A stretch of 64,000 bases of DNA from Verrucomicrobiota bacterium (GTDB lineage: Bacteria > Verrucomicrobiota > Verrucomicrobiia > Limisphaerales > CANJSG01): the NCBI GenBank assembly GCA_038209745.1, contig JBBQXJ010000012.1:5429-69428 (forward strand). The letters are read 5' to 3'. A program made the translations under genes and the position numbers. Positions 8,272 to 64,000 of this stretch are shown piece by piece. Position 1 is the stretch's first letter. Each line of letters starts with the position of its first letter. Below the pieces are notes generated by a model, which was not told the origin of the DNA, ran no database searches, and saw only the letters and a list, made by a program, of their open reading frames with translations.

Positions 8272-8320
8272 TGAATCGCCTGAGAGAAACGTAATCGAAC
8301 TGACTTCATCTCAACCGCAC

Positions 8321-8668: not shown

Positions 8669-8680
8669 TCGCTCCGCCTT

Positions 8681-8743
8681 GTTCCCTATCTGTGTGAATC
8701 TGTGTCCATCTGTGGTTGTCCTCTTCCCCCATGACTGAACGCG
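8681..8743 (-). repeat. Direct repeat copy A: the 28-nt repeat fused to a copy of the lutC start region
   Basis: ATCTGTGTGAATCTGTGTCCATCTGTGG (8688-8715) is followed by TTGTCCTCTTCCCCCATGACTGAACGCG. The last 13 nt are identical to the real lutC start at 9128-9140. Confidence 0.8.
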
Positions 8744-8997
8744 CTTCAACGCCCCAACCCAAACCAGCGGCAGCCATTAGCTGGAGGTCGAGGAGCGCGT
8801 TGCGCGACGACACCTCCGATTCGCCGCCCAAACATTCACGACCCCATCGGGATCGCAGCAGGCCGCCAACCTCCAATTCCGCTGGCATCCTTTCCGGATG
8901 CGTCCCGTGGCTCCGCCCGGTCCGGGCGTGTCGCTCCGCTCAACCCCCGGCCAATCGCTGTCAGCCTTCCAGGCTGAAGACAGACCGATCCTTCGTC

Positions 8998-9058
8998 GTT
9001 TCCCATCTGTGTGAATCTGTGTCCATCTGTGGTTTCTCCACTTCCCCGACTGAACGCG
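8998..9058 (-). repeat. Direct repeat copy B: the 28-nt repeat fused to a degraded copy of the lutC start region
   Basis: 9005-9032 is 28/28 identical to 8688-8715. It is followed by TTTCTCCACTTCCCC-GACTGAACGCG, in which the ATG has been lost. Confidence 0.8.
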
Positions 9059-9127
9059 TAGCGACTCCCGCTACCTTTCCCCGTCTGCGTCCTTCCGCAT
9101 TTTCCGCGGTTAACTCCCCCTTCTCCC

Positions 9128-9835: not shown

Positions 9836-10078
9836 ATGGTCGATCAGCCACAGCACCGTCGCGGTGAGCGTGCTCCGCGCCGATTGCGCCCAAGCCGATG
9901 CTTGGGGCGCGGCTCTCAATGTCCTCGGGGCCGATCACGGACTTGCCGCCGCGGACAAGCTTGGGCTTGCCGTCCAGTTCACCGTCGAGGATGAAGACGG
10001 GGCGCTGTGGCTGGTTCCAAGCCATTGGCGGCCCGCCCGATAAGCGAAACTTCATCCGATTCAACCGCGTCTACCCGC

Positions 10079-42859: not shown

Positions 42860-45370
<2,511 letters not shown>

Positions 45371-46334: not shown

Positions 46335-46376
46335 GAGGGTCGGATTGGGGGTTCAACAGGCACCGGTCGGATTCGA

Positions 46377-47774: not shown

Positions 47775-47782
47775 GGATTCTA

Positions 47783-48286
47783 TCAGCCGACGGCGTCGTA
47801 GAGCGGCCGGAACGCGGGGATTCCGGACGGCAACGAGCCGCGGCCATTATAGGTCTGGGTGTCGTCTCTCGGGAAAAGGCTCGAGAGGAAACTCTGCATC
47901 AGGTCGAGGGAACGGCGCATGAGCAGGTGGTTCTGTCGGCTGCGCTGCTGCACGCGGACGAGGAGCTGGTTGTTCTCGTCGACGAGAGCCTGCACGAGCG
48001 GTCGATAATCGGCGGGCAGCACCGGGACGAGTTCACTGAACGGAGCGTCGGAAGCGCGGCCGACCCACCGGGCGAACGCGCCGCGACAGGCTTCGCGGCG
48101 ATTGCGCGCCTGCTCGACGTCACGCATCTGGGTCTGGATCTGCTGGGCTGCGGAGACGACGCCGTCGGACTGCCGGTTCATGACCGACTCCTGCTGCTGA
48201 TCCAGCAGCGCGAGGATGCCGCCGTAGGTGGTAAGCTCCTCGCGGAGAGCGCCGACCAGATCGTTGATGGACTGCATGGAATTCAT
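47783..48286 (-). CDS. flgN: FlgN-family flagellar chaperone
   Basis: 167-aa helical protein. Its position upstream of flgK and its LxxLLxxQ-rich N-terminus fit FlgN. Confidence 0.65.
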   Translation of the reverse strand: MNSMQSINDLVGALREELTTYGGILALLDQQQESVMNRQSDGVVSAAQQIQTQMRDVEQARNRREACRGAFARWVGRASDAPFSELVPVLPADYRPLVQALVDENNQLLVRVQQRSRQNHLLMRRSLDLMQSFLSSLFPRDDTQTYNGRGSLPSGIPAFRPLYDAVG

Positions 48287-48639
48287 TTCTGTGGGTTGCC
48301 GGAGGCGGAATCCGCGTGACGGCCGGAATTGGGGATCTGCCGGAGAAGCTGCGCCTGGAGACTGGAGGCGACGCCGATGCCGCCACTGTGGGTGATGGAG
48401 TCGGCCAGGCGGTCGGTGACCATGTCGGTGTAGGCGCGGGTCTCGGAGGAACCGCCCCCGAGGGCGGGGTCGGTCATGGGCTGCCGGGCCTCGCGGAGCA
48501 TCTGGCGGATCATCACCCCTTCGAACTGGCGGGCGAGCTCGGCCACCTTCTGCTGCTCGGTGATCACCGAACTGGTGGAAAGCTGCTCGACGGAGAGGTC
48601 GGAGGCCCGGACGCCGGAATTGGTTGCACCGATATTCAT
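48283..48639 (-). CDS. flgJ: Flagellar rod-binding protein (FlgJ N-terminal-domain type, no muramidase domain)
   Basis: AELARQFEGVMIRQMLREAR rod-binding motif in an ~118-aa protein. The ATG at 48639 overlaps the flgI stop. Confidence 0.75.
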   Translation of the reverse strand: MNIGATNSGVRASDLSVEQLSTSSVITEQQKVAELARQFEGVMIRQMLREARQPMTDPALGGGSSETRAYTDMVTDRLADSITHSGGIGVASSLQAQLLRQIPNSGRHADSASGNPQK

Positions 48640-49745
48640 CAACGAAGAATCAGCTCAGCTTGAAGTGCGCCAGCCTGTTTCATGGCCTGAAAGATGGACA
48701 TCATGTCGCGTGGAGTGACACCCAGGGAGTTCAACGACTGGGCGACCTTTTCCACGGTGGGCATTTCCTGCAGGGGGATCAGGGCACCCTTTTCCTCATG
48801 GAGGGCGGTGTCGGTCTGCTGGGTCACCGTGGTGTTCCCGGTTTTGCTGAAGGCGTTCGGCTGCGAGACGTTCGCGTTGTTCGCGATGGTGATGGTGATG
48901 TTGCCGTGGGAAACGGCGCAGGCCGCGATGCGGATGCGGGCCGTGGCGACGATGGTGCCGGTGCGTTCGTTGATGATGATGCGGGCCGGAAGGTCCGACT
49001 CGACCTCGACCGCTTCCAGCGCGGCGATGAAGTCCACCGAAGCGGAGCGGAACTCTTCCGGCACTTCGACGCGCACGGTCGTGGAGTCCAGCGCGCGGGA
49101 GATGGCGTTGGTAAACCGCAGGTTGAGCGCCGCGGCCAAGCGGGAGGCCGAGGTGAAGTCGGGTTCGCGGAGGAGAACGTCGAGAGTGTTGTCATGGACC
49201 AGGGTGAACGGGATCTCCCGCTCAACGATGGCCCCGCCGACGATCTGACCGACGGTGGGATGGTTCTTCTGGACGGAAGCCACCTCGTTGCCGGCGCTGA
49301 AGCCGCCGATCGACATGTTGCCCTGGGCGACGGCGTAGACGACGTCGTCCGCGCCGAACAGGGGGGTCTGGAGAAGGACACCACCCTGGAGGGTCTTGGC
49401 GTCGCCAATGGAGCTGATGGTGACGTCGATCCTGCTCCCCTCTTTCTTGAAGGCGGGGATGTCCGCGGTCACGAGCACGAGGGCGACGTTCTTGGAGGAG
49501 AGGGCGGCGGGCGGGACCTTGATGCCGCGGCGCTCCAGGGCGCTGGCAAAGGCTTGGAGGGTGTAGAGAGGATTCTTGTCGCCATCGCCATTGATGCCGG
49601 TGACGAGTCCGATGCCGGTGAGCTGGTTGTCCCGGACGCCGCCGACGACGGCGATGTCCTTCACCCGCGACAGCAGGGCGGCCCCCGTGGACCAGGGTCC
49701 AACAAGGGCGACCACCACAAAACCGACCAGAATCCGGGTCATCAT
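48639..49745 (-). CDS. flgI: Flagellar P-ring protein FlgI
   Basis: 368 aa with RVKDIAVVGGVRDNQLTGIGLVTGINGDGD and LQGGVLLQTPL. Confidence 0.95.
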   Translation of the reverse strand: MMTRILVGFVVVALVGPWSTGAALLSRVKDIAVVGGVRDNQLTGIGLVTGINGDGDKNPLYTLQAFASALERRGIKVPPAALSSKNVALVLVTADIPAFKKEGSRIDVTISSIGDAKTLQGGVLLQTPLFGADDVVYAVAQGNMSIGGFSAGNEVASVQKNHPTVGQIVGGAIVEREIPFTLVHDNTLDVLLREPDFTSASRLAAALNLRFTNAISRALDSTTVRVEVPEEFRSASVDFIAALEAVEVESDLPARIIINERTGTIVATARIRIAACAVSHGNITITIANNANVSQPNAFSKTGNTTVTQQTDTALHEEKGALIPLQEMPTVEKVAQSLNSLGVTPRDMMSIFQAMKQAGALQAELILR

Positions 49746-49754
49746 GTCAGGCGA

Positions 49755-50534
49755 TCAAAACGGGGTGACCTTGTCCCAGACACGGGTGAGCCATCCCTTG
49801 TTCTGCGAATCCGTCACGGTGCCGCTCGACTTGAAGGTGATCGCCGCGTCGGCCACGTCATAGCTCATCACGGTGTTGACCGAGGTGACGTCCTCGGTGC
49901 GGACGACGCCCCGGAGGATGACCTCCTGCTTCTCACCGGAGAACCCGGTGCGCTTGCGGCCCTCGACGATCAACACCTTGTTCGGCAGGACGTCCACGAC
50001 GCGGACGGCGATGCGGGCGGTGATCTGTTCCGAGTTGTTGATCTGGCCGCCACCGTTGTGGTCGACCTTCGCTCCGTACTTGAGAGCGGGCAGGCTGCCA
50101 CCCTTGGTCAGGGCTCCGTAGCTGCTCGCCGGGTAGAGGAAGCTGCTGATGCTCGCATCCAGACCGCTGGACTTGGAGGTCTTGGTGTTGTTGTTCTTGG
50201 AGGCCGAATTGTTCTCCTGAACGATGATCGTCAGGATGTCGCCCACGGCGGTCGCCTTCTTGTCGGCGACCAACGGGCGGGCCGTCTCTGATTTCCAAAG
50301 CGAATCGGCCGATGCGAGGAACGGCAGGCCGGCGACGAGGGCGACGGCCGCGACCAGCCGCAAAGACTCTTCCACCGTCTTGCGCGGCCGAAAGCGGACT
50401 TCGAGGCGACGCGACTTCTTCACTTCGCTCTCCAACGACTCGTCGGTCTCGGCCGGAGCCGCTCCGCCCTTGCGGGCTTTCTTCCCCGCCCAGTGGTGGG
50501 CGCGTTCAAAGATAAAGGACAATGGTTTGTTCAT
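49755..50534 (-). CDS. flgH: Flagellar L-ring protein FlgH
   Basis: SLWKSE...ADKKATAVGDILTIIVQEN...VLPNKVLIVEG fits the FlgH family pattern. Confidence 0.9.
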   Translation of the reverse strand: MNKPLSFIFERAHHWAGKKARKGGAAPAETDESLESEVKKSRRLEVRFRPRKTVEESLRLVAAVALVAGLPFLASADSLWKSETARPLVADKKATAVGDILTIIVQENNSASKNNNTKTSKSSGLDASISSFLYPASSYGALTKGGSLPALKYGAKVDHNGGGQINNSEQITARIAVRVVDVLPNKVLIVEGRKRTGFSGEKQEVILRGVVRTEDVTSVNTVMSYDVADAAITFKSSGTVTDSQNKGWLTRVWDKVTPF

Positions 50535-51639
50535 TTTGGACCTTTCCCAGCATTTCCCGTCTTGTTTTTAAGTTTCTAACCCGGAGGTTCTGGCCGACGA
50601 CGCCGTCTTCGAGGACCTCCACCTTGATTGAAATAGTCATCGCTCCGTCCGCCACCAGCCCATCGACGATCGTCCCGCGGGTAACGGCGGGGCGGACCCG
50701 CAGGGCCCGGCCGGTGACCAGTTGCCCCCGGCTGACGCTGGTGACGAACTCGAGGGAACCTTTCTCCAACGCTTCGGGCGTGATGTAGTCGCGGGTGAGG
50801 AGAAGATCCCGCCGCTCGGAGCGGACATCGGCGCCGACCAGCGGCTGGCCCTTGACCAGGGTCGATCCCGCCACCAGCACGTCGCGCCAGATCTTGGCCT
50901 GGACCATCACGGGCCACGTGCCGATCCGGGTCTCGCCGCAATCCACGGCGACGCGGGCGATGAAACTCGATCCGATACCGTTCAAAGGAAGATCCACCAC
51001 CCGGAACTTCAGCGGCTCGTCGGGCACGGCGACCGGCTTCCATTGTCCGGTGATCCGGAGCTCCAGTTCACCGCGGTCGCGGACCTGTTCGCGCTGGAGC
51101 GCATCGGTGAGCCATCCGCGGATTTCATCCTCACCTAGTGGGCGGGATTTGCGCTGCACCTTGACGGAGCCCGCTCCCGTCCAGTTCGTGACCGTGATCC
51201 CCGGAGCCTGCTCGCGGAGCAGCGCCTCGATGGCGGTCCGCTCCACGGTGATCATCCGGCCAAATTCCGGCGAGTCGGCCACCTTCAAACCACCGGAAGG
51301 CTCCGAGGCGAGAGAGGGAACGAGGGCACCCAAAAGCACGCCCGAAGAATCCACCTCCACCTCCGCAGCGACCTCCAGCGTCCGAGCCGAAAGCCTCGCA
51401 GCGACCATGGAGAAGGCGATGGCCAGAAGGCTCATCGCAGAGGCGAAACTGCGCCGCCGCAAATACCCCGAACGCCGGGGCTGTTCGGGATTGAAGCTGA
51501 ACCGCGGGTCCGTGGCGCGGGCCACCGGCGCGTCCGCCGTGGGCGCTCCAGAATCCGGTGCGGTCTGGGCCAGAGCCGGTTTGGGTCGGTGGGGTTTGCC
51601 GGCGATGCGGTGGCGAGTCTTCATGGAGGGGACGATCAT
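50506..51639 (-). CDS. flgA: Flagellar basal-body P-ring formation protein FlgA (SAF domain)
   Basis: C-terminal SAF/FlgA pattern (V.RGTIVDGLV..GAMTISIKVEVLEDGVVGQNLRVRNLKTRREMLGKV). The start overlaps the flgG stop. Confidence 0.8.
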   Translation of the reverse strand: MIVPSMKTRHRIAGKPHRPKPALAQTAPDSGAPTADAPVARATDPRFSFNPEQPRRSGYLRRRSFASAMSLLAIAFSMVAARLSARTLEVAAEVEVDSSGVLLGALVPSLASEPSGGLKVADSPEFGRMITVERTAIEALLREQAPGITVTNWTGAGSVKVQRKSRPLGEDEIRGWLTDALQREQVRDRGELELRITGQWKPVAVPDEPLKFRVVDLPLNGIGSSFIARVAVDCGETRIGTWPVMVQAKIWRDVLVAGSTLVKGQPLVGADVRSERRDLLLTRDYITPEALEKGSLEFVTSVSRGQLVTGRALRVRPAVTRGTIVDGLVADGAMTISIKVEVLEDGVVGQNLRVRNLKTRREMLGKVQNEQTIVLYL

Positions 51640-52415
51640 CGGGTGAGATTGCCGGCGATCTGCAACATCTCGTCGGCCGCCTTGACCGACTTCGAGTTCA
51701 CCTCGTAGGCGCGCTGGGCGACGATCATGTTCACCATCTCCTCGACCACCTTGACGTTCGAGAGTTCGAGGTAGTTCTGCTGGAGAGAACCGAAGCCATT
51801 GGCGTCCGGTTTGCCGACGTCCGGAGTTCCAGACGCGCCGGTCGCGGTGAAGAGATTGCCGCCGATGCTCTTCAAGCCCGAAGGATTGGTGAACCGGGCC
51901 AAAGGGATCTCGAAGGTGCTCGTTCCGCTCGGACCGGTCAGGGAAACGGTGCCGCCCGGGGCGATCGAGATACCGGTGGTGCCGGCGGGCACGGCTCCGA
52001 AGCCCGTAAATTTGAGGCCCTGGCTGGTGACGAACTCACCGCTGCTGTTCAGTTTGAAGGAGCCGTCCCGGGTGTAGGCCGAGGTGCCGTCGGGCAACTG
52101 CACCTCGAAGAACCCGTCGCCGTTGATCGCCACGTCGAGCTTCTCCCCGGTGTTGCTCAGATCGCCTGCCGTGAAGATCCGGCCGGTGCCGGCGACGCGC
52201 GAACCGTGGCCGACCTCGACGCCGGTGGCGAGCTGGGTGTTGTTTCCCTGCTCCGCACCCGCTGCACGCTCGGTCTGGTAGAGGAGGTCCTGGAACTCGA
52301 TCTTGTTCTTCTTGAAACCCGTCGTGTTGACGTTCGCCAGGTTGTTCGAGATGACGTCCAGGTTCATCTGCTGCGACTGCATGCCGGAGGCGGAGGTGTA
52401 AAGTGCGCGAATCAT
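51636..52415 (-). CDS. flgG: Flagellar distal rod protein FlgG
   Basis: MIRALYTSASGMQSQQMNLDVISNNLANVNTTGFKK N-terminus and C-terminal VAQRAYEVNSK. Confidence 0.95.
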   Translation of the reverse strand: MIRALYTSASGMQSQQMNLDVISNNLANVNTTGFKKNKIEFQDLLYQTERAAGAEQGNNTQLATGVEVGHGSRVAGTGRIFTAGDLSNTGEKLDVAINGDGFFEVQLPDGTSAYTRDGSFKLNSSGEFVTSQGLKFTGFGAVPAGTTGISIAPGGTVSLTGPSGTSTFEIPLARFTNPSGLKSIGGNLFTATGASGTPDVGKPDANGFGSLQQNYLELSNVKVVEEMVNMIVAQRAYEVNSKSVKAADEMLQIAGNLTR

Positions 52416-52430
52416 AGGGTCGGATCAGGG

Positions 52431-53168
52431 TTACGAAGCGGGAGAAAGCTGGCTGATCGCGCGCGACATGCGTTCGTCGCTGATACGGATCACCTTTTGG
52501 TTGGCCTCGAAGGAGCGCATGGCCTGGATCATCTCGGCCATCTCGTTGACCACGGAGGTGTTGGAACCCTCCAGATAGCCCTGGCGCACCGTGGACGTGG
52601 AGGGTCGCTCGGTGGCGGAGCCGGCTTCGAAGACGCCGTCCCCGGCCAATGTCAGCTTCGAGACGTCGGCGAATTCAACGACCTTGATCTTGCCCTTCTT
52701 GTCGGCGCCCTGGCTGACTTCACCGCTGGTGGCGATGGTGAAGGCGCCAGACTTGTTCGGATCCTTCTGGATCGCCCCGGTGGTGCCCACCACCTCGTAG
52801 CCCTGCTTGGTCATCAGCCGGCCGTCGGGGCTGAAATGGAATTCGCCGTCACGGGTGTATCCCTTGGTGTTGTCGGGACGGGACACCTCGAAGAATCCGC
52901 TGCCTTCAATGGCAACGTCTTCCGGTCCACCCGGCCGGATCGCCCCGGCGGAGAAGTTGTAGGAAGTGACGACCTGCGGAGCCGCCATGCTGACCAAGGC
53001 GGAACCGTTGTTGGACATCTGGCCGGCCTGACCGGCGACGGACTGGAACGAAACGTCCTGATGCCGGTAACCGGGCACCGACGCGGCCGCCAGATTCTCG
53101 GAGATGACCTCCTGCCATCGACTGTTCGCGTTCATCGCGGCGGCGGCTTGGAAGAGACTTACGTTCAT
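52431..53168 (-). CDS. flgF: Flagellar proximal rod protein FlgF
   Basis: From the ATG at 53168: MNVSLFQAAAAMNANSRWQEVISENLAAASVPGYR. The C-terminus is MIQAMRSFEANQK. Confidence 0.85.
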   Translation of the reverse strand: MNVSLFQAAAAMNANSRWQEVISENLAAASVPGYRHQDVSFQSVAGQAGQMSNNGSALVSMAAPQVVTSYNFSAGAIRPGGPEDVAIEGSGFFEVSRPDNTKGYTRDGEFHFSPDGRLMTKQGYEVVGTTGAIQKDPNKSGAFTIATSGEVSQGADKKGKIKVVEFADVSKLTLAGDGVFEAGSATERPSTSTVRQGYLEGSNTSVVNEMAEMIQAMRSFEANQKVIRISDERMSRAISQLSPAS

Positions 53169-53335
53169 CGCTCTCCCTGCCCAGCAACGCCGATGCCATC
53201 CGGTATTTCGGCCGCTTTTCCCCTGTTTTGCCCTTTTGAGATCCAACGATGCCGGCAATTGCTTCCCGTCCCGGACAAATTTGCCGACCTACTGGCAGGT
53301 CTTTGGGATAGGCTACCCTCTTGAATCAAGGAGGG

Positions 53336-54543
53336 TAAACTTCGTGACGAAGGCCGATGGCCGCACTTTGAAGCATAGGACGCTGGAGCTCATCCGTCGG
53401 TTGGGCGTGAAGCGGGTAGTGGAAGCGGGCGAGGCCCGAGCGTCGCAGCAAGTTTCTTGGGCTGTGCCGCACGAGCATCTACCCTGGGTTGGGAAGATTC
53501 AAAGGGGGCGGATGGAACGCGTTGGCGGAAAGCATTGCGGAAGGCCCTTCCTCCAAACTCTCAGCCGGAACAATGCAGTGGAGACGCCTGGGACTCCCAG
53601 CCGCCCCCGCTGCCGTCCGGCGCGCCCCGAGACTGGCACGAACGCGGTTCGGACACACCAGCCGGCGAATCGTTTCCTGCGCCTCCTCTGGACCGCGAGG
53701 GCGCGATCGACTGCGCCTGGGACGGGCGCGCTCCCCTCATCCCCACTGCAAGGTTCTGGCTCAGAGAAGCAGCGCCAGCAGGTGGGTCGCTGGATCCTCG
53801 GCCAGGATCCACGGCGGCTCGGGTTTGATTTTCGCCTGTGGACCCGGCGAATTATCCATGCATTCGAGAAACCGAAGATGGGCATCAAACCCGGGTTGAC
53901 GGCCGTGGCTCGCTTATTGGCGAGTTTGGACACCACCCCTCAGAACGCCGCTACGCCGGGCCTACGATCGAGACCCTCTCGCGGGCGCCCAGCTGGATGG
54001 AAGAGCCCTGCCCAAGACTCAGGAAGCGTGCGCGCAAGACGGGGGGCGATGATCCTCGTCCCGGATGAGGCAGGATTTTAATCCAACCCGCCGTCGGGCC
54101 GAACTTACGGGTTCAAGGGAACGACCCAAGTCGTCACAACTTCCGCCCAACGGCAATGCATCCACTTGAACAGCGCGGTCAATGCGGGAGGCAAGTTCTG
54201 GGCGGCAAGGTATGGCGGGAAGCTCAACGCCGGATCGTTCGTCTTGTTTCTCTCGAAATTTATGAAGGGACGCAATGGAAAGGTCTTCCTGGTAGCGGAC
54301 GGACATCAGGCCCGCAAAGCCAATGCGGGCAAGGACCGCCTTGCGCCTCTCAACAATCAGTTGGACCTTCACGCACTGCCGCCCTCAGCACCCGACTTCA
54401 ATCCCAACGGGCTCGCGTGGAGACATCTGAAGAGCAACGGAATCTCCAAAAAACCGCGGATGGAAAACGAGCGGAACAAGACTCCTTCGCAATTTAGAGG
54501 GACAAGGATGTGGTCCGCTCCTTCCTCGGAGCCAAAAGCGTAG
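53336..54543 (+). pseudogene. Decayed IS630/Tc1-mariner-family transposase (multiple frameshifts)
   Basis: Family-typical segments are scattered over at least 3 frames. These include an HTH part (LELIRRLGVKRVVEAGEA), ...DPRRLGFDFRLWTRRII...GIKPGLTAVARLL..., AMILVPDEAGF (the DDE D region) and ...KVFLVADGHQARKA...APDFNPNGLAWRHLKSNGISKK. GC content is lower than in the flanks. Confidence 0.8.
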
Positions 54544-54586
54544 CAGATGCCACGGACTGATCATGGGGCGAACCAAAACGGAAAAG

Positions 54587-54615
54587 TGGCGGGAGTGGCG
54601 GGACTCGAACCCGCC
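54587..54615 (-). other. Orphan tRNA 3'-end fragment (T-arm + 3' acceptor strand + encoded CCA) with no 5' half
   Basis: The reverse complement reads GGCGGGTTCGAGTCCCGCCACTCCCGCCA. This parses as T-stem GCGGG, loop TTCGAGT, stem CCCGC, acceptor CACTCCC, discriminator G, then CCA. The required 5' strand GGGRGTG is absent within ~400 nt. The motif GTGGCGGGA is locally duplicated. Confidence 0.6.
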
Positions 54616-55013
54616 CAATAGTTCTTCGTCTGTTTTCGCATCCGTTCGCATCAGTTTCCTCCAAAACGCTTTACTTCGTCTTCCTTGGATCGCCCTCAAA
54701 TCTCCCTTTGCGCAAGCAAGCGCATCGATCCGAACGAACTCTGTCAGGAATTGTCAGGCAATCCATGCAACTTCTACGAAGCCCCGGAAGAAGCCCCCTG
54801 CTCACCTTGTAAGACCCCCGCAGGGTTCTTGGCTAAGCTTTCAGATCGTTCCGGTGAGATACGATTGAATAATTTGGGACGTCTGACGGGTCAGCGTCCG
54901 AGGACCGGAAGATTTGCGAGATACTCTGGAATCCGACTCGCCAATCACCCACCCCACCCGAGACTGCAGCCGGATGTCGTTGAGCAGTTCGGCATCTCCG
55001 TCAAAGGGCAATC

Positions 55014-55775
55014 ATGCGCGAAGCACGTCACAACGAACCTTTGCCTGAAAGACCCGGCTGGTTCGCCACCACCCATTGGACCGTCGTGCTCCGCGCCAAG
55101 TCGGATAACGCGCCCGAGGCTGCCACTGCGCTAAGTTCTCTGTGCGAGACCTACTGGACGCCAGTCTTCGCCCTCATCAAACGAGGAGGACGTTGTCTAG
55201 CTGACACCGAGGATCTCACACAGCAGTTCTTCGCGCGGTTTCTGGCCAAAGAGCAATATCGGCTGGCGATGAGGGAACGGGGGCGATTCCGCTCCTTTCT
55301 CCTGACGGCCGTCAAAAACTTCCTGATCAACGAGCGGGAGCGTGCGTCGGCTCAAAAGAGAGGCGGCGGTCGCATTCCGGAGTCATTGGATGAGTTGGTC
55401 CCCGAGGGCGACCGAGCCCGGATCGAGCCTGCGGATGAGCGCACCGCCGAGCTGCTCTTCGAACAATCCTGGGCGTTGACGTTGTTGGCAAAAGTGCGCG
55501 ACCAGCTCGCGAATGAATACTCGGTTGAAGGCAAGGCGGAGCGGTTTGCCGAATTGGAGAAGTTCCTTCCTGGCGAAGACAGTGCCGACACCTATGCCAA
55601 GGCGGCCGCCCGTCTCGGAGTGGCCGAGGGCACGATCAAATCCGACATGCATCGCTTGAAGCGGCGCTACCGAGAGCTGCTGCGGGCAGAGATCGCCCAC
55701 ACCGTAGAAACCGCGGAGGAGGTGGACGACGAACTGCGCCACCTGATGGCGGTCCTAAGCCAGCCACGAGGATGA
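55014..55775 (+). CDS. ECF-type RNA polymerase sigma factor of the Ser/Thr-kinase-associated type (ECF43-like)
   Basis: 253 aa with the N-terminal FATTHWTVV motif, a sigma-2 region (DLTQQFFARFL) and a sigma-4 HTH (AAARLGVAEGTIKSDMHRLKRRYRELL). There is no adjacent anti-sigma gene. An STK gene lies 107 nt downstream. Confidence 0.85.
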   Translation: MREARHNEPLPERPGWFATTHWTVVLRAKSDNAPEAATALSSLCETYWTPVFALIKRGGRCLADTEDLTQQFFARFLAKEQYRLAMRERGRFRSFLLTAVKNFLINERERASAQKRGGGRIPESLDELVPEGDRARIEPADERTAELLFEQSWALTLLAKVRDQLANEYSVEGKAERFAELEKFLPGEDSADTYAKAAARLGVAEGTIKSDMHRLKRRYRELLRAEIAHTVETAEEVDDELRHLMAVLSQPRG

Positions 55776-55882
55776 TTCTCCGCGCGCTCCTCGCCGGCAC
55801 CGCCAACTTTCTTTGCAACCATTCAGGCGATTTCCGGCAATGAAAGGGTGACGGATGCCACGACGGCGTCTCTCGACCACCT

Positions 55883-58800
55883 ATGAACCGATGTTGCAAC
55901 CAATGCGGGGACGATCTGATCGATGGCACGGAGGGGCGGCGCTGTCCCAAGTGCATCCTCGCTCTGGCATTGGAACCGGAGGACGACGAACGGCCATCGT
56001 TCCTCGCCATCGGGACTCGCTTCGGCGGCTACGAATTGCTGGAGGAAATTGCCCGGGGAGGCATGGGCGTCGTCTATAAGGCGAAGCAGGTCGCGTTGAA
56101 CCGGGTCGTCGCGCTCAAACTCATCCTGTCGGGTCAATTCGCCAGCAAACAGGAGGTGCTGCGGTTCAGGTTGGAAGCCGAGGCGGCGGCCAACCTGCGG
56201 CATCCGAACATCGTCGCGATCTACGAGACCGGTGAGGAACTCGGCCAGCAGTTCTTCTCCATGGAATTCGTGGAGGGACGGACGCTGACGGACATCGTTC
56301 ACGACGGCCTGCTTCAGCCGAAGCGCGCCGCGACCTACGCCGAAACGATCGCCCGGGCGATCCAACACGCGCACGAACAGGGCACGGTGCATCGGGATCT
56401 GAAGCCTTCGAACGTGATGATCGACGTCGCCGGGCAGGTGCGCGTGACCGATTTCGGGCTGGCCAAGCGCCTTCAAGACGATCCCGAACTCACGGCCACC
56501 GGCCAAGTGATGGGGTCCCCGAGCTTCATGCCGCCGGAGCAGTCGTCCGGCGCCCGCTCGGCTTTGGGGCCGGCTGCCGACGTCTATGGGATCGGCGCGA
56601 TTCTCTATTATCTGCTCACAGGTCGGCCTCCGTTCCAGGCCGCGACGATGGCGGAAATCGTCCGGCAATTGCATGAGCAGGATCCGGTGCCGCCTCGCCT
56701 GCTCGTTCCAAACATTGCCCAGGATCTCCAGACGATCGTCCTGAAGTGCCTGGAGAAAGATCCGGCCAAGCGCTTCGCCACCGCCGCCGAACTGGCCGAA
56801 GAACTGGGTCGATTCCTGCGTGATGAACCGGTTCGGGCCCGGCCGGTCGGAGCGCTCGAAAAGGCGTGGCGCTGGTGTCGGCGCAAGCCGGTCGTGGCGG
56901 CTCTGCTGATCGCGCTCGGGCTTGCCCTGCTATCGGGGACCGGAGGCGTGCTCTGGCAGTGGCGTCATGCGACGACCAGCGCCCGGGCGCTCCGTCACGG
57001 GCTCTACTCGGCGGACATCAACCTGGCATCGCACCTTCGGACCGATCGGGACATAAACCGCGCCGTCGGCCTGCTCCTGCGGCATGTTCCAAAGCGAGGA
57101 GAAGAGGACCTGCGAGGGTTCGAGTGGCGTCTGTTGTGGGAGCAGTGCCAAGGCGAAGAAACGGATTCGATCATGGCCCATGACGGGGACGTCGACTCCC
57201 TCGCCTTGACCCCGGACGGTGAACACTTCCTGACGACCGGAAGCGACCACACCGCCAAGCTTTGGAACCTCCGGACGCTGAAGCTGGAGAGAATCTTGAA
57301 AACCCTGCCCGGAAAGCCGCCCCTACATTCCGTGGCGGTAAGCGCCGACGGCGGAAAAGCCGCAGTGTGCGACGGCCTAACCGTGACCGTATTGGAAACC
57401 AAGGGCTGGTCTGAAATCAAAACCCTGGCCGTGCCCACGTTGGCTGTGGCGTTTTCGCCGAAGACCGGTGCGCTGATGACCAGCGCCGGAGCCGACATCA
57501 AGGCGTGGGATCCCAACACCTGGATCGCGCAAACCTTGGTGGACGGCCCTCTGGAACTCTTCGCGTTCAGTCCGGACGGCCGCTTGCTGGCGGTTGCGCG
57601 GGGAGAAGACCTCGAACTGCACGATGGTTCGAACGGCCGACTGCTGGTTCGGTTGCCCGGGAAAATCGAGAACCATGCCTATGCCCTGGCCTTTTCGCCC
57701 GATGGCCGCTTCGTCGCCGCCGGAGGGATGTATGGCGGCGTGATCGTTTGGGACGTTGCTGCGGAAAAGGTCGTCGCGAAGGCCAGCGCCCACACCAGCT
57801 TCGTGAGCGGCCTCGCCTTCTCCCCGGACGGACGCTGGCTTGCCACCGGCGGAAGCGATCAGTTCCTGACAATCGGAAGGGTGTCCGATTGGCACAAGGA
57901 AGCGGATCTCTACGGTCACAAAAACGGCGTCTTCGATCTCACCTTCACTCCGGATGGTCGCCGCCTGGTTTCGGCCAGCCGCGACCACACGGTGAAGTTC
58001 TGGAAGGTCCCGGTGGAACCGAACGCCTCGATGTTGGGCGACGCGCAGGCCCTCATCGGGTTCACGGCGGACAGCAGGACGGCCGTCACGCTGGACACGG
58101 ATGCAACCCTCCGGCAGTGGGATGTGGCGTCCCTGGACGAAATCAAACGGAACAAGCTCTCCGCCCAAGTTCGGGCCACCGCCGGCACCGTCGCGCCTGA
58201 CGGAAAAACGGTGGCGATCGGCTATGAAGACGGCTTCGTGGAGTTTCGCGATCTGCCGACCTCCGATTTGCTCCATCGGGGGAACGGCGGGACCAACGCA
58301 GTTTGCTTACTGCAGTTTTCTCCCGACGGCAGAGTCGCCGCGGGCACCGGTATTTTCCTGCACGGCCTCCCGACCACCAGTGGAATTCTCGGACTCTGGG
58401 ACGTGGCCACCGGGGACCGGTTGACCAAACTCGAGGAGTCACTGGGCGGTTCGGCCAGCGGGATCTCTTTTTCCCACGACGGACAATTGATCGCGATCAG
58501 CCGGCCCGACCTATCGATCTTGATCTGGGACCGGGTCCGCAACAAACCACTCCGCACGCTCACCGGCCATACTTGGGATGTGTCGTCGGTAACGTTCTCG
58601 CCCGACGACCGGACGCTGGCCTCGTCGAGCTGGGACACCACCGTCCGGCTCTGGGATGTGGCCACGGGCCGGGAGATCGCGCAATTCGCCGGGCTGCCCG
58701 TGGGAGCGGGACCGGCGTGCTTTTCGCCGGACGGCCGGACCCTCGCCGCCACGTTCGTGGGCAACGCCATTGAACTCTGGCACATGTCGAACCAACAGGA

Positions 58801-58963
58801 GCTGCTCACGCTCAAATGGTCCGGGCGCTTCATCGGGCCGCTGCTGTTCTCGCCGGATGGCACGACGATGGGGGTGGGTCGGTTGCTACCCATTAGCCCC
58901 GACGGAGGGGTCCAGCTCTGGCGCGCCCCGGTCGTTAAATCCGCGGCCCTTCCGCCCCGCTGA
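55883..58963 (+). CDS. Ser/Thr protein kinase with an N-terminal zinc ribbon, one TM helix and a long WD40 beta-propeller array
   Basis: CCNQCG...CPKC zinc ribbon. Kinase motifs IARGGMGVVYKAKQ, HRDLKPSNV, DFG and PPE. TM helix VVAALLIALGLALL. Then at least 12 WD40-type repeats (e.g. GHTWDVSSVTFSPDDRTLASSSWDTTVRLWD). Confidence 0.9.
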   Translation: MNRCCNQCGDDLIDGTEGRRCPKCILALALEPEDDERPSFLAIGTRFGGYELLEEIARGGMGVVYKAKQVALNRVVALKLILSGQFASKQEVLRFRLEAEAAANLRHPNIVAIYETGEELGQQFFSMEFVEGRTLTDIVHDGLLQPKRAATYAETIARAIQHAHEQGTVHRDLKPSNVMIDVAGQVRVTDFGLAKRLQDDPELTATGQVMGSPSFMPPEQSSGARSALGPAADVYGIGAILYYLLTGRPPFQAATMAEIVRQLHEQDPVPPRLLVPNIAQDLQTIVLKCLEKDPAKRFATAAELAEELGRFLRDEPVRARPVGALEKAWRWCRRKPVVAALLIALGLALLSGTGGVLWQWRHATTSARALRHGLYSADINLASHLRTDRDINRAVGLLLRHVPKRGEEDLRGFEWRLLWEQCQGEETDSIMAHDGDVDSLALTPDGEHFLTTGSDHTAKLWNLRTLKLERILKTLPGKPPLHSVAVSADGGKAAVCDGLTVTVLETKGWSEIKTLAVPTLAVAFSPKTGALMTSAGADIKAWDPNTWIAQTLVDGPLELFAFSPDGRLLAVARGEDLELHDGSNGRLLVRLPGKIENHAYALAFSPDGRFVAAGGMYGGVIVWDVAAEKVVAKASAHTSFVSGLAFSPDGRWLATGGSDQFLTIGRVSDWHKEADLYGHKNGVFDLTFTPDGRRLVSASRDHTVKFWKVPVEPNASMLGDAQALIGFTADSRTAVTLDTDATLRQWDVASLDEIKRNKLSAQVRATAGTVAPDGKTVAIGYEDGFVEFRDLPTSDLLHRGNGGTNAVCLLQFSPDGRVAAGTGIFLHGLPTTSGILGLWDVATGDRLTKLEESLGGSASGISFSHDGQLIAISRPDLSILIWDRVRNKPLRTLTGHTWDVSSVTFSPDDRTLASSSWDTTVRLWDVATGREIAQFAGLPVGAGPACFSPDGRTLAATFVGNAIELWHMSNQQELLTLKWSGRFIGPLLFSPDGTTMGVGRLLPISPDGGVQLWRAPVVKSAALPPR

Positions 58964-59152
58964 GTTCATCGACTTGGTCGGTGCCGGTCCTCAAACCGAA
59001 TTCGCGTTGGGCTTGGTTTCCCCGGTAGAGCCGCGCCGCCGACTTTCTCCGACTCCCTGCAACCTTTGAGAAAGCTTCCTGTAACTCTCCCCAGAAGGCT
59101 TCGGGCCTTCGTTCTGCAAACAGACGCGTTTCAACCTGAAAACCCAACTGCC

Positions 59153-62100
59153 GTGAAAAACGTAGATTCAAGAACCAAGCTCGTCCGGCCGAGACGCCCT
59201 GGCTTCATTCACTGCCTCGTGGCCTCGCTGATCGTGGCGGCCTTGGTGGGAGCGCTGCCCGCCGCCGCCGCTCCTGCCTTCGACCACCCGGTTCGGTATT
59301 CGGCCGGTGGGTATCACAACTACGGCGTGGCCGTGGGCGATTTCAACGGGGACGGACGCCCAGATCTCGTCACGGTATCCGCTTTGTCGAGCGAGTTGTC
59401 GGTCCTGCTCAATCGCGGCGACGGAACCTACGATCCGGAGGTTCGTTTCCCTTCGGACAATGCGGACCGCCAGCTTCAGGCCGTGGGAGTGGCCGACATG
59501 AACGGCGACGGGAAGCTCGACGTGGTAGCAGTCGGCGAAAGTCCGGAGGGAGTGGTGGTTTTTCTGGGACGAGGCGACGGGACGTTTGATGTCGGACGAG
59601 GCTTTCCCTGTGGAAGCGTCAACAATCGCTTCTTGGCGATCGCGGATTTCAACGAGGATGGATCGCCGGATGTCGTGGTCGTCTCAAGCGGAAACTCCAT
59701 GGTCGCTGCGGCGGCGAGCCTGTTGTATGGCAGCAAGGACGGAACTTTTTTTCTCAAGGACACGTTTGTTTGGGCCCCAAACTCCCATCTTCCAGCGGGC
59801 ACCGGCGTGGCAGTGGCCGACTTCAATCGAGATGGTCACGCGGACCTGGCCATCGCCAATGCCTCTGGTCCGACGTCCGTTTTGTTGGGACACGGTGACG
59901 GAACCTTCAGTCTCCAGGCCGACTTGTCTGCGGATCCCGGCCTTTGGCAGGCCATCTGTGTGGCCGATCTGAATCGGGACGGGATTCCTGATCTTGCTGG
60001 CATCGCCCTCTTGTTGAATCCGGCCACGCAGTCTTTCCGGTCCGTTGTCGTCGCGGCCCTTGGGCATGGCGATGGAACGTTCGAGCCCGTTGCTCAGTAT
60101 TCCATCCTCTCTGATTCCAGGGCCGGCATTGCTGTCGGCGACTTTGACGGCGGTGGACCCGACATCGCCGTAGCCGGCTACGACGGACGGGTCGAGGTGT
60201 ATTCAAACCGAGGTGACGGCACTTTCCAGGACGGCACTTTCCGGCATCCGGCCGACAGTTTTTATCTGGGTGGTTCGCGGGCCGACAACCTCTTGGCGGT
60301 CGATCTGAACGGGGATGGGCGGCCCGACCTCGCCGTGTCCACGCAGGAACTTGCCGGCTCACCGGCCGGCCTGGTTGTTCTCAAAAACACCACGGCGAAA
60401 CGCCTCGCCAGTCTGGTTTTGACGAGCCCGGTCGCCGTTGAACTCGGCGCGAGATTCTCCATGACGGTCACGGCCTACGACCAGTTCGGAGCCCCATTTC
60501 CGGATTATCGCGGGACAGTCTATTTCTTCTCCTCGGACAAGTCGGACTGCGGACAGGTGCCGGCCGACTACACCTTCAACGCGGCCGACGGCGGCACCCA
60601 CGTCTTCACTGATGAGGCGACCCTGTTGAGCAGCGGCCAGCGGACGGTGACGGCCGTGGACGCGATGGTGCCCGCCTTGCAGGACTCCCGCGATGTCACA
60701 GTCTCCGAGGGTCTGACCGTCACGACGGCGTCCGATGAAACCTCGAACAACGGCCAGGTGTCGCTTCGCGAAGCGATCCTGCGGGCCAACCAAACGCCCC
60801 GGTCCGCAGTGAAGCCTGCGGTCATCCGGTTCAACCTCTGTCCCGCCACCGACGAGACGCTGGTGCTGGCTCCCCTGTCTGAATTGCCAGCGGTCCAAGG
60901 GGCCGTCGTGATCGACGGATTTTCCCAACCCGGGGCGAGGCCGAACACCTTGGCCATCGGTGACAACGCCTTGCGCCGCATCGTTCTCGAAGGCAAGCAG
61001 ACCGGCAGCGGAGCCAACGGTCTGACATTGGAGGGGGCGGCCGAGGTGCGCGGCCTGGAGATCCGTGCGTTCGATGCGAGGGGCATCCACGTGAACAAGA
61101 GCGATGGCGGCGTCATCCGGGGCAACCACATCCATGACAATCTGACCGACGGCATCGACCTCGAGTCCGGCAACTGGACGGTGGGCGGGAACCGGCCCGA
61201 AGACCGGAACCTCGTTTCCGGCAACCGCTCCTCGGGAATCCTGGTCCACGACGACGATCCCGGAAATCTGGGACACCGAATCCTGGGCAACTACATCGGC
61301 ACCGACCACCAAGGATCGAACGCGATTGCCGGCCAGTGGTCGGGCGGCATCGTGATCATCGGCTCTGCCAACACCGTGGTGGGAGGCAATGGTGCGTCGG
61401 CGCGGAACGTGATCTCCGGCAATTCCGGTCCCGGGATCGTCGTGACGGGGAACTCCACCGACACGGTCCTGCGTGGCAACTTCGTCGGCCCTTCCGCCAG
61501 CGGTGTTCTCGCCTTGGGCAACAGCATGGGCATCGTGGTCTCCAATGCTCTGCGGACGGTGGTCGGCGGTGCCACGCTGGGCGACGGAAACACTCTCTCG
61601 GGAAATGCCCTCCACGGTCTGGTCGTGGCGAGGGGTTCCCAGAACACGCTGATCCAGGGCAATCGGGTGGGGTTGGTCCCTTCCGGAAAGTTCGCCCTGC
61701 CAAACGGAGGCGACGGGATCGCGGTGCTGGAGAACGCGCTCGACACCATGATCGGTGGCGGACCCGAGACGGCAGTGAATCTGATCTCCGGAAACCACGC
61801 GAACGGCATCCGCCTGAGCGGGGGCAGCCGCACCCAGCTTCTTTGCAATGACATTGGTCCTGCCGACAAAGACGGTGCGGCGCTGGGCAATGGCGGCTAC
61901 GGCATCGCCATCGTGCCTGATCCGCTGCATCCGGGATCGCCCGATGGCAATGTGATCGGGGGCATTCTTCCCGGAATGCAAAACGTGATCGCGTTCAATG
62001 CCAGGGGAGGAATCGGAGCCACGACCGGATTGAAGAACAGCATCCGGGGCAACTCGATCTTCGGCAACGGCGGTCTGGGCATCGACCTCGGCACCGCCGG

Positions 62101-64000
62101 CGTGAACCTCAACGATTCCGACGACGGCGACTCAGGGCCAAACGATCTCCAGAACTTTCCTGTGCTCACCGGCGCAATCGGGGACGGGGCCAATCTGACG
62201 ATCATGGGGAACATGGCGGGACGCAGCGGCGCAACGCTGGCCCTGGATTTCTACTGGAGCCAGGACTGTGGCGCGTCCGGCTTCGGCGCGGGCACCGTCT
62301 ATCTCGGCTCGAAGACGATCACCTCGGACGCGACGGGGATGGCTGCTTTCAGCGCCGACTTCGCGGCTGCGGTTCCAGCGGGTGGAGTCGTCACGGCGAC
62401 GGCGACTTCCGCCGACGGCAACACATCGGAGTTCTCGCGATGCCAGCCAGTCTCGGAACGGATTTCCGTCCGGCCCTTCGCCGGTTTGGATTTCAACGGA
62501 CTGGGTGGAGGAAGGTTGTCGGACATGGGGGGAGTGCTCGCGGTCTCGAATGTCGGCGCGTCCGGCAACGACGGGTTGGGACTGGTGCTCGGACGGGCGG
62601 ACGGTTGGCGCGGCGAGTTCCGCTGGCCGACCGTGGATTCCCGCGGGATGCGCTTTACCACGACGGTCAGCGGCGACTCCGGAAGCATCACCGGCCAGGT
62701 CTTGGCCTCGACCTTCTACGAAGTGAAGGAACGGGACGGCAGCTTCAGGGTCGATTTCTCCGGCGTGGATTCCAAAACTTCGCGGATCGAACTGCGCGAT
62801 GTGGACGGCATCGTCATCGGTGCCGGCATCGTGGACAACGCCACGGCCTTCCTTTTCGACGGGGAAACCGGTGCAGGCCAAAGCGGGGTGATCCTTCCGG
62901 ATAAACTGACCACCATGGCGACTCCCGATGGAGTGTCGGTGTGCCTCGAGTTTTCAGAGGACGTGTTCATCCAAAACCTGCCCGCTGGCGTCCGGCAGGC
63001 GCTGAACCATCCGGGGCTGCGACGCCTGTTGCTCATGGGATTGGGCGGTCGACCGGTGAGTGCGATCTCCTCGGTGGATCTCCGGGCGGCGCTGCCCCCG
63101 ACGTTGAAGGGTGCCCCGACCGGCAGCTTCGAGATTGCCAGGTCTGAGGTGTCGTTGTTCGGATTGTTTCAACATTCCGGGGGGGTGAACCTGGAAGTGT
63201 CGAAGGGTTCCCCGACCGATGCAGCTTTGATCGGTCTTTTGAATCCGGTTCCCGACACATTGGCCACTGCCTCGATCGATCTTTCCAATGCGGGGAGTTG
63301 CCGTTTTTCCTGGCTGCCGTTCGGACCGGCTGACGTGCCGGCCGATGGACGCCTGCGTCTGGCATTCTCGGCGTTCACCGGCGGCGACAAGGGAGGGCGC
63401 AACATTCCCGTCGGTGAACTCACTCTGCAAAAGACGGGCTCCGGCCTCGAACTCTCCGGTGCAGCTGGCGTTTGGAGCGGTCCGATGGCGCGGGTGCAGG
63501 TCTTTCGCCAAGGCGCGGTGGCCTTTGACGAGCTTCGCCCGCTGGCCCAGCCGCTGGCCCGATTCGAGTCTTGGCCGACCGGAGCGGAAGCCAGCGGCAG
63601 GGGAGACGCGTCCATATACGGAATCCTCGTCGGCCTCCTCTTCCCTGCAGATCACCACTCCGTGATCGAGATCGGCGGTCTCAAGATCGACGGCGACGCC
63701 ATTCTTGTCTCAGCCGGACAGGCGACGGCGCCCGTCCGGTATCTGGAAACGGCGACCTTCGAGTTCAATCTGGGACGGATCAAACTGACCAACGAGCAAA
63801 TGGCTCCGGCGACGCTGCCTCCCTTGGACCTTGGGAGGGACGCCGATCAATCGATGCTCCGGATTCCGACCGACCCGGCCCGCCGATACAGGCTCATGTC
63901 GAGCGAGGATCCTGCCGCGACCGTCTGGGATCCAGTCTCCTCCTTTATGGGCGACGGGACAACCCGTGCGATCCCCATCACGACGAGCGGCGAAGCGAGT
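59153..64000 (+). CDS. Giant secreted FG-GAP/VCBS + Ig-like + CSLREA + right-handed beta-helix protein; the 3' end lies off the window
   Basis: Frame 2 has no stop from 58964 to the window end, so the ORF track does not list it. GTG at 59153 gives a signal peptide (RPRRPGFIHCLVASLIVAALVGALPAAAAPA). There are about 7 FG-GAP repeats (VGDFNGDGRPDLV, VADMNGDGKLDVV, IADFNEDGSPDVV...). The CSLREA motif (NGQVSLREAILRAN) lies at about 60750-60790. Many PbH1-type turns follow (ISGN...GI.V). Near 63880 an RYRLMSSEDP...W segment resembles the C-terminal module seen in the RCC1 and NHL proteins. Confidence 0.85.
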   Translation, partial: MKNVDSRTKLVRPRRPGFIHCLVASLIVAALVGALPAAAAPAFDHPVRYSAGGYHNYGVAVGDFNGDGRPDLVTVSALSSELSVLLNRGDGTYDPEVRFPSDNADRQLQAVGVADMNGDGKLDVVAVGESPEGVVVFLGRGDGTFDVGRGFPCGSVNNRFLAIADFNEDGSPDVVVVSSGNSMVAAAASLLYGSKDGTFFLKDTFVWAPNSHLPAGTGVAVADFNRDGHADLAIANASGPTSVLLGHGDGTFSLQADLSADPGLWQAICVADLNRDGIPDLAGIALLLNPATQSFRSVVVAALGHGDGTFEPVAQYSILSDSRAGIAVGDFDGGGPDIAVAGYDGRVEVYSNRGDGTFQDGTFRHPADSFYLGGSRADNLLAVDLNGDGRPDLAVSTQELAGSPAGLVVLKNTTAKRLASLVLTSPVAVELGARFSMTVTAYDQFGAPFPDYRGTVYFFSSDKSDCGQVPADYTFNAADGGTHVFTDEATLLSSGQRTVTAVDAMVPALQDSRDVTVSEGLTVTTASDETSNNGQVSLREAILRANQTPRSAVKPAVIRFNLCPATDETLVLAPLSELPAVQGAVVIDGFSQPGARPNTLAIGDNALRRIVLEGKQTGSGANGLTLEGAAEVRGLEIRAFDARGIHVNKSDGGVIRGNHIHDNLTDGIDLESGNWTVGGNRPEDRNLVSGNRSSGILVHDDDPGNLGHRILGNYIGTDHQGSNAIAGQWSGGIVIIGSANTVVGGNGASARNVISGNSGPGIVVTGNSTDTVLRGNFVGPSASGVLALGNSMGIVVSNALRTVVGGATLGDGNTLSGNALHGLVVARGSQNTLIQGNRVGLVPSGKFALPNGGDGIAVLENALDTMIGGGPETAVNLISGNHANGIRLSGGSRTQLLCNDIGPADKDGAALGNGGYGIAIVPDPLHPGSPDGNVIGGILPGMQNVIAFNARGGIGATTGLKNSIRGNSIFGNGGLGIDLGTAGVNLNDSDDGDSGPNDLQNFPVLTGAIGDGANLTIMGNMAGRSGATLALDFYWSQDCGASGFGAGTVYLGSKTITSDATGMAAFSADFAAAVPAGGVVTATATSADGNTSEFSRCQPVSERISVRPFAGLDFNGLGGGRLSDMGGVLAVSNVGASGNDGLGLVLGRADGWRGEFRWPTVDSRGMRFTTTVSGDSGSITGQVLASTFYEVKERDGSFRVDFSGVDSKTSRIELRDVDGIVIGAGIVDNATAFLFDGETGAGQSGVILPDKLTTMATPDGVSVCLEFSEDVFIQNLPAGVRQALNHPGLRRLLLMGLGGRPVSAISSVDLRAALPPTLKGAPTGSFEIARSEVSLFGLFQHSGGVNLEVSKGSPTDAALIGLLNPVPDTLATASIDLSNAGSCRFSWLPFGPADVPADGRLRLAFSAFTGGDKGGRNIPVGELTLQKTGSGLELSGAAGVWSGPMARVQVFRQGAVAFDELRPLAQPLARFESWPTGAEASGRGDASIYGILVGLLFPADHHSVIEIGGLKIDGDAILVSAGQATAPVRYLETATFEFNLGRIKLTNEQMAPATLPPLDLGRDADQSMLRIPTDPARRYRLMSSEDPAATVWDPVSSFMGDGTTRAIPITTSGEAS

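Follow-up and report, generated by a model that had tools for sequence, protein, structure and literature searches.

A shared candidate promoter motif may link a kinase-associated ECF sigma factor to its kinase gene and to a giant secreted-protein gene in a Verrucomicrobiota bacterium

Do an extracytoplasmic function (ECF) sigma factor, a membrane Ser/Thr kinase and a giant secreted protein encoded one after another form a single regulatory circuit that carries its own target gene? The question is raised by a 64,000-nucleotide (nt) stretch of a Verrucomicrobiota bacterium (contig JBBQXJ010000012.1, assembly GCA_038209745.1), hereafter the window. The three open reading frames (ORFs) share the + strand and are separated by 107 and 189 nt, the last running to the window end with 1616 codons inside it (Table 1). 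An earlier note had described this co-directional trio, pointed out that the sigma factor has no anti-sigma partner, and proposed a self-contained surface-sensing and adhesin-expression circuit. Gene order and spacers were found as described, and the inspected window ORFs near the sigma gene include no anti-sigma-like candidate. One ECF-type motif stands upstream of both the kinase gene and the giant gene, which makes one sense-and-respond circuit probable, and a kinase-coupled ECF sigma circuit with its target gene encoded alongside is given a probability of roughly 55%.

The motif is bipartite, TGCAACC-N11-TTCCKGYA, and this variant is proper to the clade of orthologous loci. Its pattern TGyAAC-N16-nGTA resembles classical ECF promoters, such as those of the Bacillus subtilis sigma-W, -X and -M types. 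On both strands of the 64 kb, GCAAC-N15-CKGYA occurs exactly twice (0.47 expected), both times on the + strand and once in each spacer. As a guard against circularity, an independent matrix was built from the kinase-upstream sites of four loci without the giant (L081, L083, L088, L091). It ranked the sites at 55814 (19.6 bits) and 59058 (18.4 bits) first and second among about 128,000 window positions, the next reaching 12.5 bits. In L086 and L173, the two other loci that carry the trio, its top-ranked site was the one upstream of the giant gene. The site occupies the equivalent place in both, and in the window/L086 alignment of the kinase–giant spacer conservation begins at the −35 element. 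Across six orthologous sigma–kinase spacers, the only conserved blocks are TGCAACC-N11-TTyCyGyA and the start codon. The shared motif that had been suggested for 58964–59152 and 54860–55013 is thus present in the first region but missing from the second, its partner lying in the sigma–kinase spacer instead; the matrix scan detected no site upstream of the sigma gene in the window or in any orthologue. A sigma-70 consensus scan of 54000–59400 revealed no housekeeping-type promoter.

Conservation of the neighbourhood separates the pair from the trio. A scan for sigma homologues, with one genome per species, yielded 80 loci with sigmas 43–55% identical, mostly from Verrucomicrobiota (Limisphaerales, Pedosphaera) and some from Planctomycetota and Acidobacteriota; Pirellulaceae, Rhodopirellula, Fuerstiella and Gemmatales contigs are among the related loci. 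Among the 72 with sufficient downstream sequence, a same-strand kinase gene directly follows the sigma gene in 60, and no relative of the giant lies within 10 kb in any of them. True orthologues were taken from metagenome and metagenome-assembled genome (MAG) contigs (sigma 61–75% identical, kinase 54–69%, WD40 sensor 58–67%). The giant follows the orthologous pair in three of about eight loci, namely the window, L086 (1632 amino acids (aa), 66% identical to the window giant) and the Verrucomicrobiales MAG locus L173 (1633 aa, 53%), with trio proteins 53–69% identical across the three. Elsewhere, the pair is followed by a thioredoxin-like gene (L081/L082), small unknown ORFs (L083, L174), a gene for a 1518-aa HYR/S8-peptidase protein (L088) or one for a 593-aa protein (P0180 contig). 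L089 is rearranged (3155–10732): the gene of a 661-aa FG-GAP/ASPIC protein begins 37 nt behind its sigma gene (66% identical), and its WD40 kinase gene comes last in a divergent operon, after genes for 407 and 170 aa, that is headed by the clade motif. Neighbourhood conservation therefore holds for the pair and, in L086 and L173, for the trio, but unrelated genes take the place of the giant in five of about eight loci, so that the refuting condition set by the earlier note, a pair beside unrelated genes, often applies. By these gene neighbourhoods, the sigma–kinase pair is the stable unit and the giant an accessory to it.

Such turnover raises the alternative that the giant gene is an unrelated neighbour, its adjacency and motif likeness being coincidental. 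These genomes are rich in large secreted repeat proteins, most orthologous loci have some other gene behind the pair, and no sigma of the family lies near any of 80 generic FG-GAP loci found in metagenomes. Yet the giant is very rare, and all three known copies adjoin the same orthologous sigma–kinase pair although the flanks of the L086 and L173 trios are unlike those of the window; moreover, a matrix from independent loci singles out the giant-upstream site in all three. Coincidence is thus very improbable. The same matrix picks out further sites at other orthologous loci. L088 has an extra site at 5353–5381, between the kinase gene and an in-frame ATG (5391) of the S8/HYR protein; that ATG (1518 aa) is more likely the start than the called GTG at 5316 (1543 aa), which would put the promoter motif inside the gene. 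L089 has two matrix sites, one ahead of the divergent kinase operon and a further one ahead of a DUF3466-like gene. No second site was detected in L081, L083 and L174, where the downstream gene is small.

The pattern extends well beyond this clade. In the distant loci, a related motif, yGyAACCTTT-N9-TTTsCTTnnGTA, lies in the sigma–kinase spacer of 64 of 71 pairs. Matches of at least 18 bits number 99 in 2.45 Mb, of which 67 precede kinase genes, 30 other genes and one a sigma gene, so that the arrangement differs from canonical autoregulation, where the sigma gene has the cognate promoter in front of it. Sixteen of the 30 other-gene matches lie on the same strand within 2.5 kb downstream of a kinase gene. 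Most of the neighbour genes that carry the motif encode a signal-peptide-like N-terminus, and 11 of the 27 proteins scanned have Pfam matches. Examples are a 1580-aa DUF5122-propeller/Ig protein, a protein of at least 2058 aa with NHL, BNR and HYR domains, an FG-GAP_2/S74 protein, phytase-like/Big_7/HYR proteins, an SdrD_B/PPC protein and prepilin-type proteins. With their signal-peptide-like starts and their mainly propeller, Ig, HYR and prepilin-type matches, these genes fit an extracytoplasmic-function regulon. On the simplest reading, each sigma of the family would read the promoters of its own kinase gene and of one or a few neighbouring exported-protein genes, the window trio being an instance.

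Another ECF sigma might be the one that reads the motif, be it a paralogue or a master regulator, so that kinase and giant would be co-regulated by a factor other than the adjacent one. The motif is indeed alike across many paralogous loci of the family, and its lack ahead of the sigma gene is atypical, since ECF sigmas usually autoregulate (PMC7826278). Against this, the motif nearly always stands directly behind a sigma gene of the family, and its variants are locus-specific, the kinase and neighbour sites within a locus having the same one. Extra sites agree with the kinase site of their own locus at a mean of 19.4 of 29 positions, compared with 15.8 ± 0.5 for other loci, and 10 of 23 extra sites find their best match among 58 loci in their own. 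The variant TGCAACC...TTCCKGYA likewise travels with the orthologous sigma. Control by a different sigma is accordingly considered improbable. The base at position 3 of the −35 element is also associated with sigma similarity (permutation test, the observed value being reached in 0 of 2000 shuffles), an association that is confounded by phylogeny and carries little weight. As a separate observation, a Limisphaerales MAG (L020, 5600–20700) contains four motif-preceded kinase genes in tandem over about 15 kb, which points to local amplification of the module; at least one of these genes follows a sigma gene, and the others presumably do so as well.

The sigma factor itself gives weak Pfam/NCBIfam matches to Sigma70_r2, Sigma70_ECF and r4_2 and none to the NCBIfam planctomycete/verrucomicrobial sigma models. 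Its AlphaFold2 model, from a 33-sequence alignment (mean predicted local distance difference test score (pLDDT) 77.6), comprises two helical domains, sigma-2 (aa 33–117) and sigma-4 (aa 145–249), joined by a disordered KRGGG...SLD linker (aa 119–134), and its best Foldseek matches are all ECF sigmas (SigH, SigW, AlgU, RpoE, SigK). On the modelled fold and the weak Pfam matches, it is a member of the ECF (group 4) sigma-70 family. The FATTHWTVV sequence noted earlier for its N-terminus occupies residues 17–25 and is preceded by W (WFATTHWTVV). The family is very large, with 5680 proteins at E ≤ 1e-5 among the candidates scored.

The proposal that this is an ECF43-type sigma was not upheld. ECF43 is defined by loss of the DAED motif of region sigma-2.2, while the acidic residues are kept here (D64-T-E-D67-L-T69-Q), as is [DE]xxDL[TA]Q in at least 113 of the 120 closest homologues; ECF43 identity is therefore ruled out. 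The other ECF43 feature is present, with a Ser/Thr kinase gene adjacent and no anti-sigma-like ORF. Among the 120 homologues, T20 of WFxTTHWS is conserved in about 109 and S124 of the linker SLD in 72. Together with T69, these residues may be phospho-acceptors, candidates picked by conservation only.

The kinase shows all Hanks-type hallmarks (Gly-rich loop, catalytic Lys, HRD, DFG), and G59–G62, K79, H170-R-D172 and D190-F-G192 are invariant in 36 homologues, orthologues and paralogues included. The Zn ribbon, kinase domain and single transmembrane (TM) helix ascribed to the 1026-aa protein were each identified. Residues 428–1014 are all-beta with a repeat period of about 42 aa (AlphaFold2 mean pLDDT 86.4), corresponding to 14 blades where at least 12 WD40 repeats had been counted. 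The array should lie outside the cytoplasm, as had been predicted, since the kinase domain requires ATP and there is only one TM helix; the flanks of that helix have net charge +6 on the N side versus +2 on the C side. A CxxC-N(6-25)-CxxC ribbon-like motif opens 65 of 67 kinases downstream of sigmas of the same family (L001–L080), and the conserved ribbon could be a sigma docking element. The window encodes another Ser/Thr kinase (776 aa, 10007–12337, + strand) in which the order is reversed, the Pkinase domain being C-terminal and the N-terminal part weakly dCache-like; the ORF upstream of it encodes a LUD-domain protein rather than a sigma factor, and no strong promoter motif lies ahead.

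The retained acidic motif and the ribbon also bear on a third alternative, in which the wiring is the same but the kinase exerts no activating phospho-switch, acting instead by an anti-sigma-like membrane hold and release that would involve its Zn ribbon or kinase domain, or through inhibitory phosphorylation or phosphorylation of another protein. With the DxxD motif for core binding intact, the sigma is perhaps intrinsically competent; a review notes that kinase-linked groups other than ECF43 may work differently (PMC8999054), and the widespread CxxC...CxxC ribbon is conceivable as a holding element. That every catalytic residue is conserved in the 36 kinase homologues, on the other hand, indicates that catalysis matters, and the ribbon spans about 25 aa, far below the size of known anti-sigma domains. 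This alternative is judged unlikely, though less so than the other two.

In the favoured kinase-coupled circuit, the sigma gene would probably be transcribed independently of the circuit, since it has no motif copy. The membrane kinase would sense a periplasmic signal through its double WD40 propeller and control the sigma from the cytoplasmic side, most likely by phosphorylating a conserved Ser/Thr in the TTHW motif, at T69 or in the SLD linker. Active sigma would bring RNA polymerase to TGCAACC-N11-TTCCKGYA promoters, of which the one ahead of the kinase gene would provide positive feedback on the sensor and the one ahead of the giant gene would yield the secreted FG-GAP/beta-helix protein as output. 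From sequence comparison, we infer both that the sigma reads the motif and that the kinase phosphorylates the sigma.

Several points weigh against this reading. The giant is missing from five of about eight orthologous loci and is thus not an obligatory partner. Position and co-variation are the grounds for assigning the motif to the sigma, and duplicated promoters of common descent could show the same. Cross-recognition among paralogous pairs is possible, because genomes of the group hold many such pairs with similar motifs. The ECF43 phospho-switch is not simply transferable to a sigma that keeps its acidic sigma-2.2 residues. No terminator-like site was found after the kinase gene, so read-through could transcribe the giant gene too. 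A search for RNA-seq runs containing the locus found none, the sequence occurring only in sediment-metagenome DNA runs. The self-contained circuit of the earlier note thus remains plausible in its recurring trio and shared promoter motif, but the giant is often replaced and the adhesin part is unsupported.

As to the output itself, the giant is indeed a secreted protein of more than 1600 aa by prediction, with a signal peptide, a seven-blade-type FG-GAP propeller (FG-GAP_3, E 2.6e-48, six stretches; FG-GAP, E 1.6e-23) and a beta-helix of about 480 aa (Beta_helix PF13229, 52.6 bits against a cutoff of 25.9, three stretches). Its predicted export follows from the signal peptide and the lack of any other hydrophobic segment; no recognisable C-terminal anchor was seen in the sequence. 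The sole match in a sequence search of the PDB was a weak one of the FG-GAP part, to cartilage acidic protein 1. The CSLREA motif claimed for it has a similar counterpart ahead of the beta-helix, but this reads VSLREAILRAN and scores 18.7 bits with the NCBIfam model TIGR04214, under the cutoff of 25. The supposed Ig-like domain (aa 416–520) found no backing in Pfam at E ≤ 1, nor did the C-terminal 520 aa give a match at that threshold. In an exhaustive search of 1.84 billion representative proteins, residues 1090–1616 had only two relatives at E ≤ 1e-30, and a word-index search with the C-terminus returned no match. About 600 residues are almost without relatives. The term adhesin was a guess; a binding role and an enzymatic one (beta-helix lyase/hydrolase-like) are both possible, and the proposed surface sensing is likewise unsupported.

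The end of the gene was estimated from the L086 orthologue rather than from the source contig, and the same alignment confirmed the GTG start and put the missing C-terminal part at about nine residues. In the 5′ leader, block GAAGGCTTCGG is partly conserved and absent from L173, and a 13-nt block, CAGAAGGCTTCGG, at window 59092–59104 is identical in L086 (4304–4316) and likewise missing in L173; the leader folds no better than shuffled controls (z = −0.55). A metagenome scan with the giant alignment was set aside as uninformative on the giant, since it returned the 80 ordinary FG-GAP loci mentioned above, selected by generic words (VAVGDFNG), none of which contained the beta-helix or the C-terminal part of the giant.

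Table 1. Features of the sigma–kinase–giant locus and its upstream surroundings, in window coordinates.
Feature	Position	Strand	Basis or details
ECF-like sigma factor, 253 aa	55014..55775	+	ORF, weak family matches, model
Predicted ECF-type promoter of kinase gene	55814..55842	+	TGCAACC-ATTCAGGCGAT-TTCCGGCA, ~40 nt ahead of ATG
Receptor Ser/Thr kinase, 1026 aa	55883..58963	+	ORF, family matches, model
Zn ribbon of kinase, aa 5-24	55895..55954	+	CxxC-N12-CxxC, pattern
Hanks-type catalytic domain, aa 50-301	56030..56785	+	Pkinase E 1e-51; K79, HRDLKPSN, DFG
Single TM helix, aa 334-359	56882..56959	+	hydrophobicity, flank charge
Predicted periplasmic sensor, aa 428-1014	57164..58924	+	14 WD40-like blades, two propellers
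Predicted ECF-type promoter of giant gene	59058..59086	+	TGCAACC-TTTGAGAAAGC-TTCCTGTA, ~70 nt ahead of GTG
Giant secreted protein, ~1625 aa	59153..64000	+	ORF, orthologue alignment; window edge removes ~9 last codons
Signal-peptide-like N-terminus of giant	59153..59272	+	hydrophobic segment aa 15-44, AAA-PA
FG-GAP/VCBS-type beta-propeller	59273..60397	+	six FG-GAP_3 matches
VSLREA motif (aa 534-546), then right-handed parallel beta-helix	60713..62152	+	
C-terminal region of giant	62153..64000	+	no family match
Flagellar cluster	45399-53258	-	flagellin-like/FlgL, FlgK, FlgI, FlgH, FlgA, two FlgF/G rod proteins
IS630-type transposase remnant	54166-54543	+	ORF 125 aa; DDE_3 C-terminal part, E 1.8e-8
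28-nt GCGGGTTCGAGTCCCGCCACTCCCGCCA	54588-54615	-	resembles tRNA/tmRNA T-arm, acceptor, CCA 3′ end

The surroundings suggest that the sigma–kinase–giant module sits at a rearrangement-prone junction, as indicated by a transposase remnant, a tRNA-like fragment and the differing flanks of the three trios. On the upstream side, a flagellar cluster ends about 1.7 kb from the sigma gene, and the IS630-type remnant lies between the two. The 28-nt stretch resembles the 3′ part of a tRNA or transfer-messenger RNA (tmRNA); against Rfam tmRNA positions 347–363 it has an E-value of 0.0095, below the gathering threshold, and ARAGORN found no complete tRNA or tmRNA gene in the window. This stretch may be the attachment-site scar of an integrated element. 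Beside the flagellar genes, a copper-type heavy-metal P-type ATPase with YHS and HMBD domains is encoded at 42860–45370 on the + strand.

Few regulators of the Planctomycetota–Verrucomicrobiota–Chlamydiota (PVC) group are as expanded as the kinase-linked ECF sigmas, of which no member outside ECF43 has a known signal, mechanism or regulon. In this locus and its two syntenic relatives, a concrete candidate regulon of two promoters with a defined motif can be tested without culturing, and the family-wide pattern suggests that the targets of hundreds of modules could be read straight from sequence. More tentatively, and with less than even confidence, the data may reflect a general, undescribed design rule, in which the sigma is not autoregulated, the promoter stands before the kinase gene and before a small number of interchangeable adjacent genes for secreted cargo, and paralogue-specific dialects would create dozens of insulated circuits per genome. 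If true, the rule would cover the very large kinase-linked ECF family of Verrucomicrobiota and Planctomycetota, with secreted propeller, Ig or beta-helix proteins as cargo. The WD40 sensor might, in addition, monitor the same protein whose expression it induces. Searches that assume autoregulation would miss the motif, since it is almost never ahead of the sigma gene. The promoter motif is what is new here; the general kind of system, a kinase-coupled ECF sigma with nearby targets, was already known, its target genes having been undefined before.

Among known systems, the only experimentally understood kinase-coupled sigmas are members of ECF43, in which the DAED of sigma-2.2 is replaced by STTA/QTTA and a phosphorylated Thr there restores core binding, EcfK using a linker Thr in addition (PMC8999054; PMC13147305). 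The locus resembles EcfP–PknT of Vibrio parahaemolyticus and EcfK–PknS of Xanthomonas citri in having an ECF sigma beside a single-pass receptor Hanks kinase and no anti-sigma. It also shares with them the proximity of regulated genes, which are a type VI secretion system cluster for EcfK and polymyxin-resistance genes for EcfP (PMC8999054; PMC13147305). In contrast to ECF43, which is proteobacterial, the present family is mostly verrucomicrobial or planctomycetal. Its sigma has D64xxD67 and is extended at the N-terminus by WFxTTHWS, and its kinase carries a Zn ribbon and a WD40 sensor. Further likenesses are found in ECF59, ECF61, ECF62 and ECF217, planctomycetal kinase-associated groups that retain a DAED-like motif and have no characterised member, phospho-regulation being only predicted (PMC7826278; PMC8999054). 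As in these groups, a PVC ECF sigma with a DAED-like motif stands next to a Ser/Thr kinase and lacks an anti-sigma, the window sigma being left unassigned to a numbered group. In the texts consulted on these groups, supplements aside, neither a promoter that separates sigma and kinase genes nor neighbouring genes with such a motif were found described, and an earlier description of the motif is possible.

The kinase shares the architecture of the WD40/TPR-array kinases of Planctomycetota, which, in the available part of Odelgard et al. (2024; PMC11032199), have their Pkinase domain in the cytoplasm, a single TM helix and, at the C-terminus, a long WD40 array with a predicted periplasmic location. 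That part of the article does not link these kinases to sigma factors or target promoters. The classical RpoE–RseA and SigW–RsiW systems are similar in their two-domain sigma, bipartite "AAC ... GT"-type promoter and extracytoplasmic targets, whereas the present locus lacks an anti-sigma and has its predicted sigma-type promoter behind the sigma gene and before the regulator gene.

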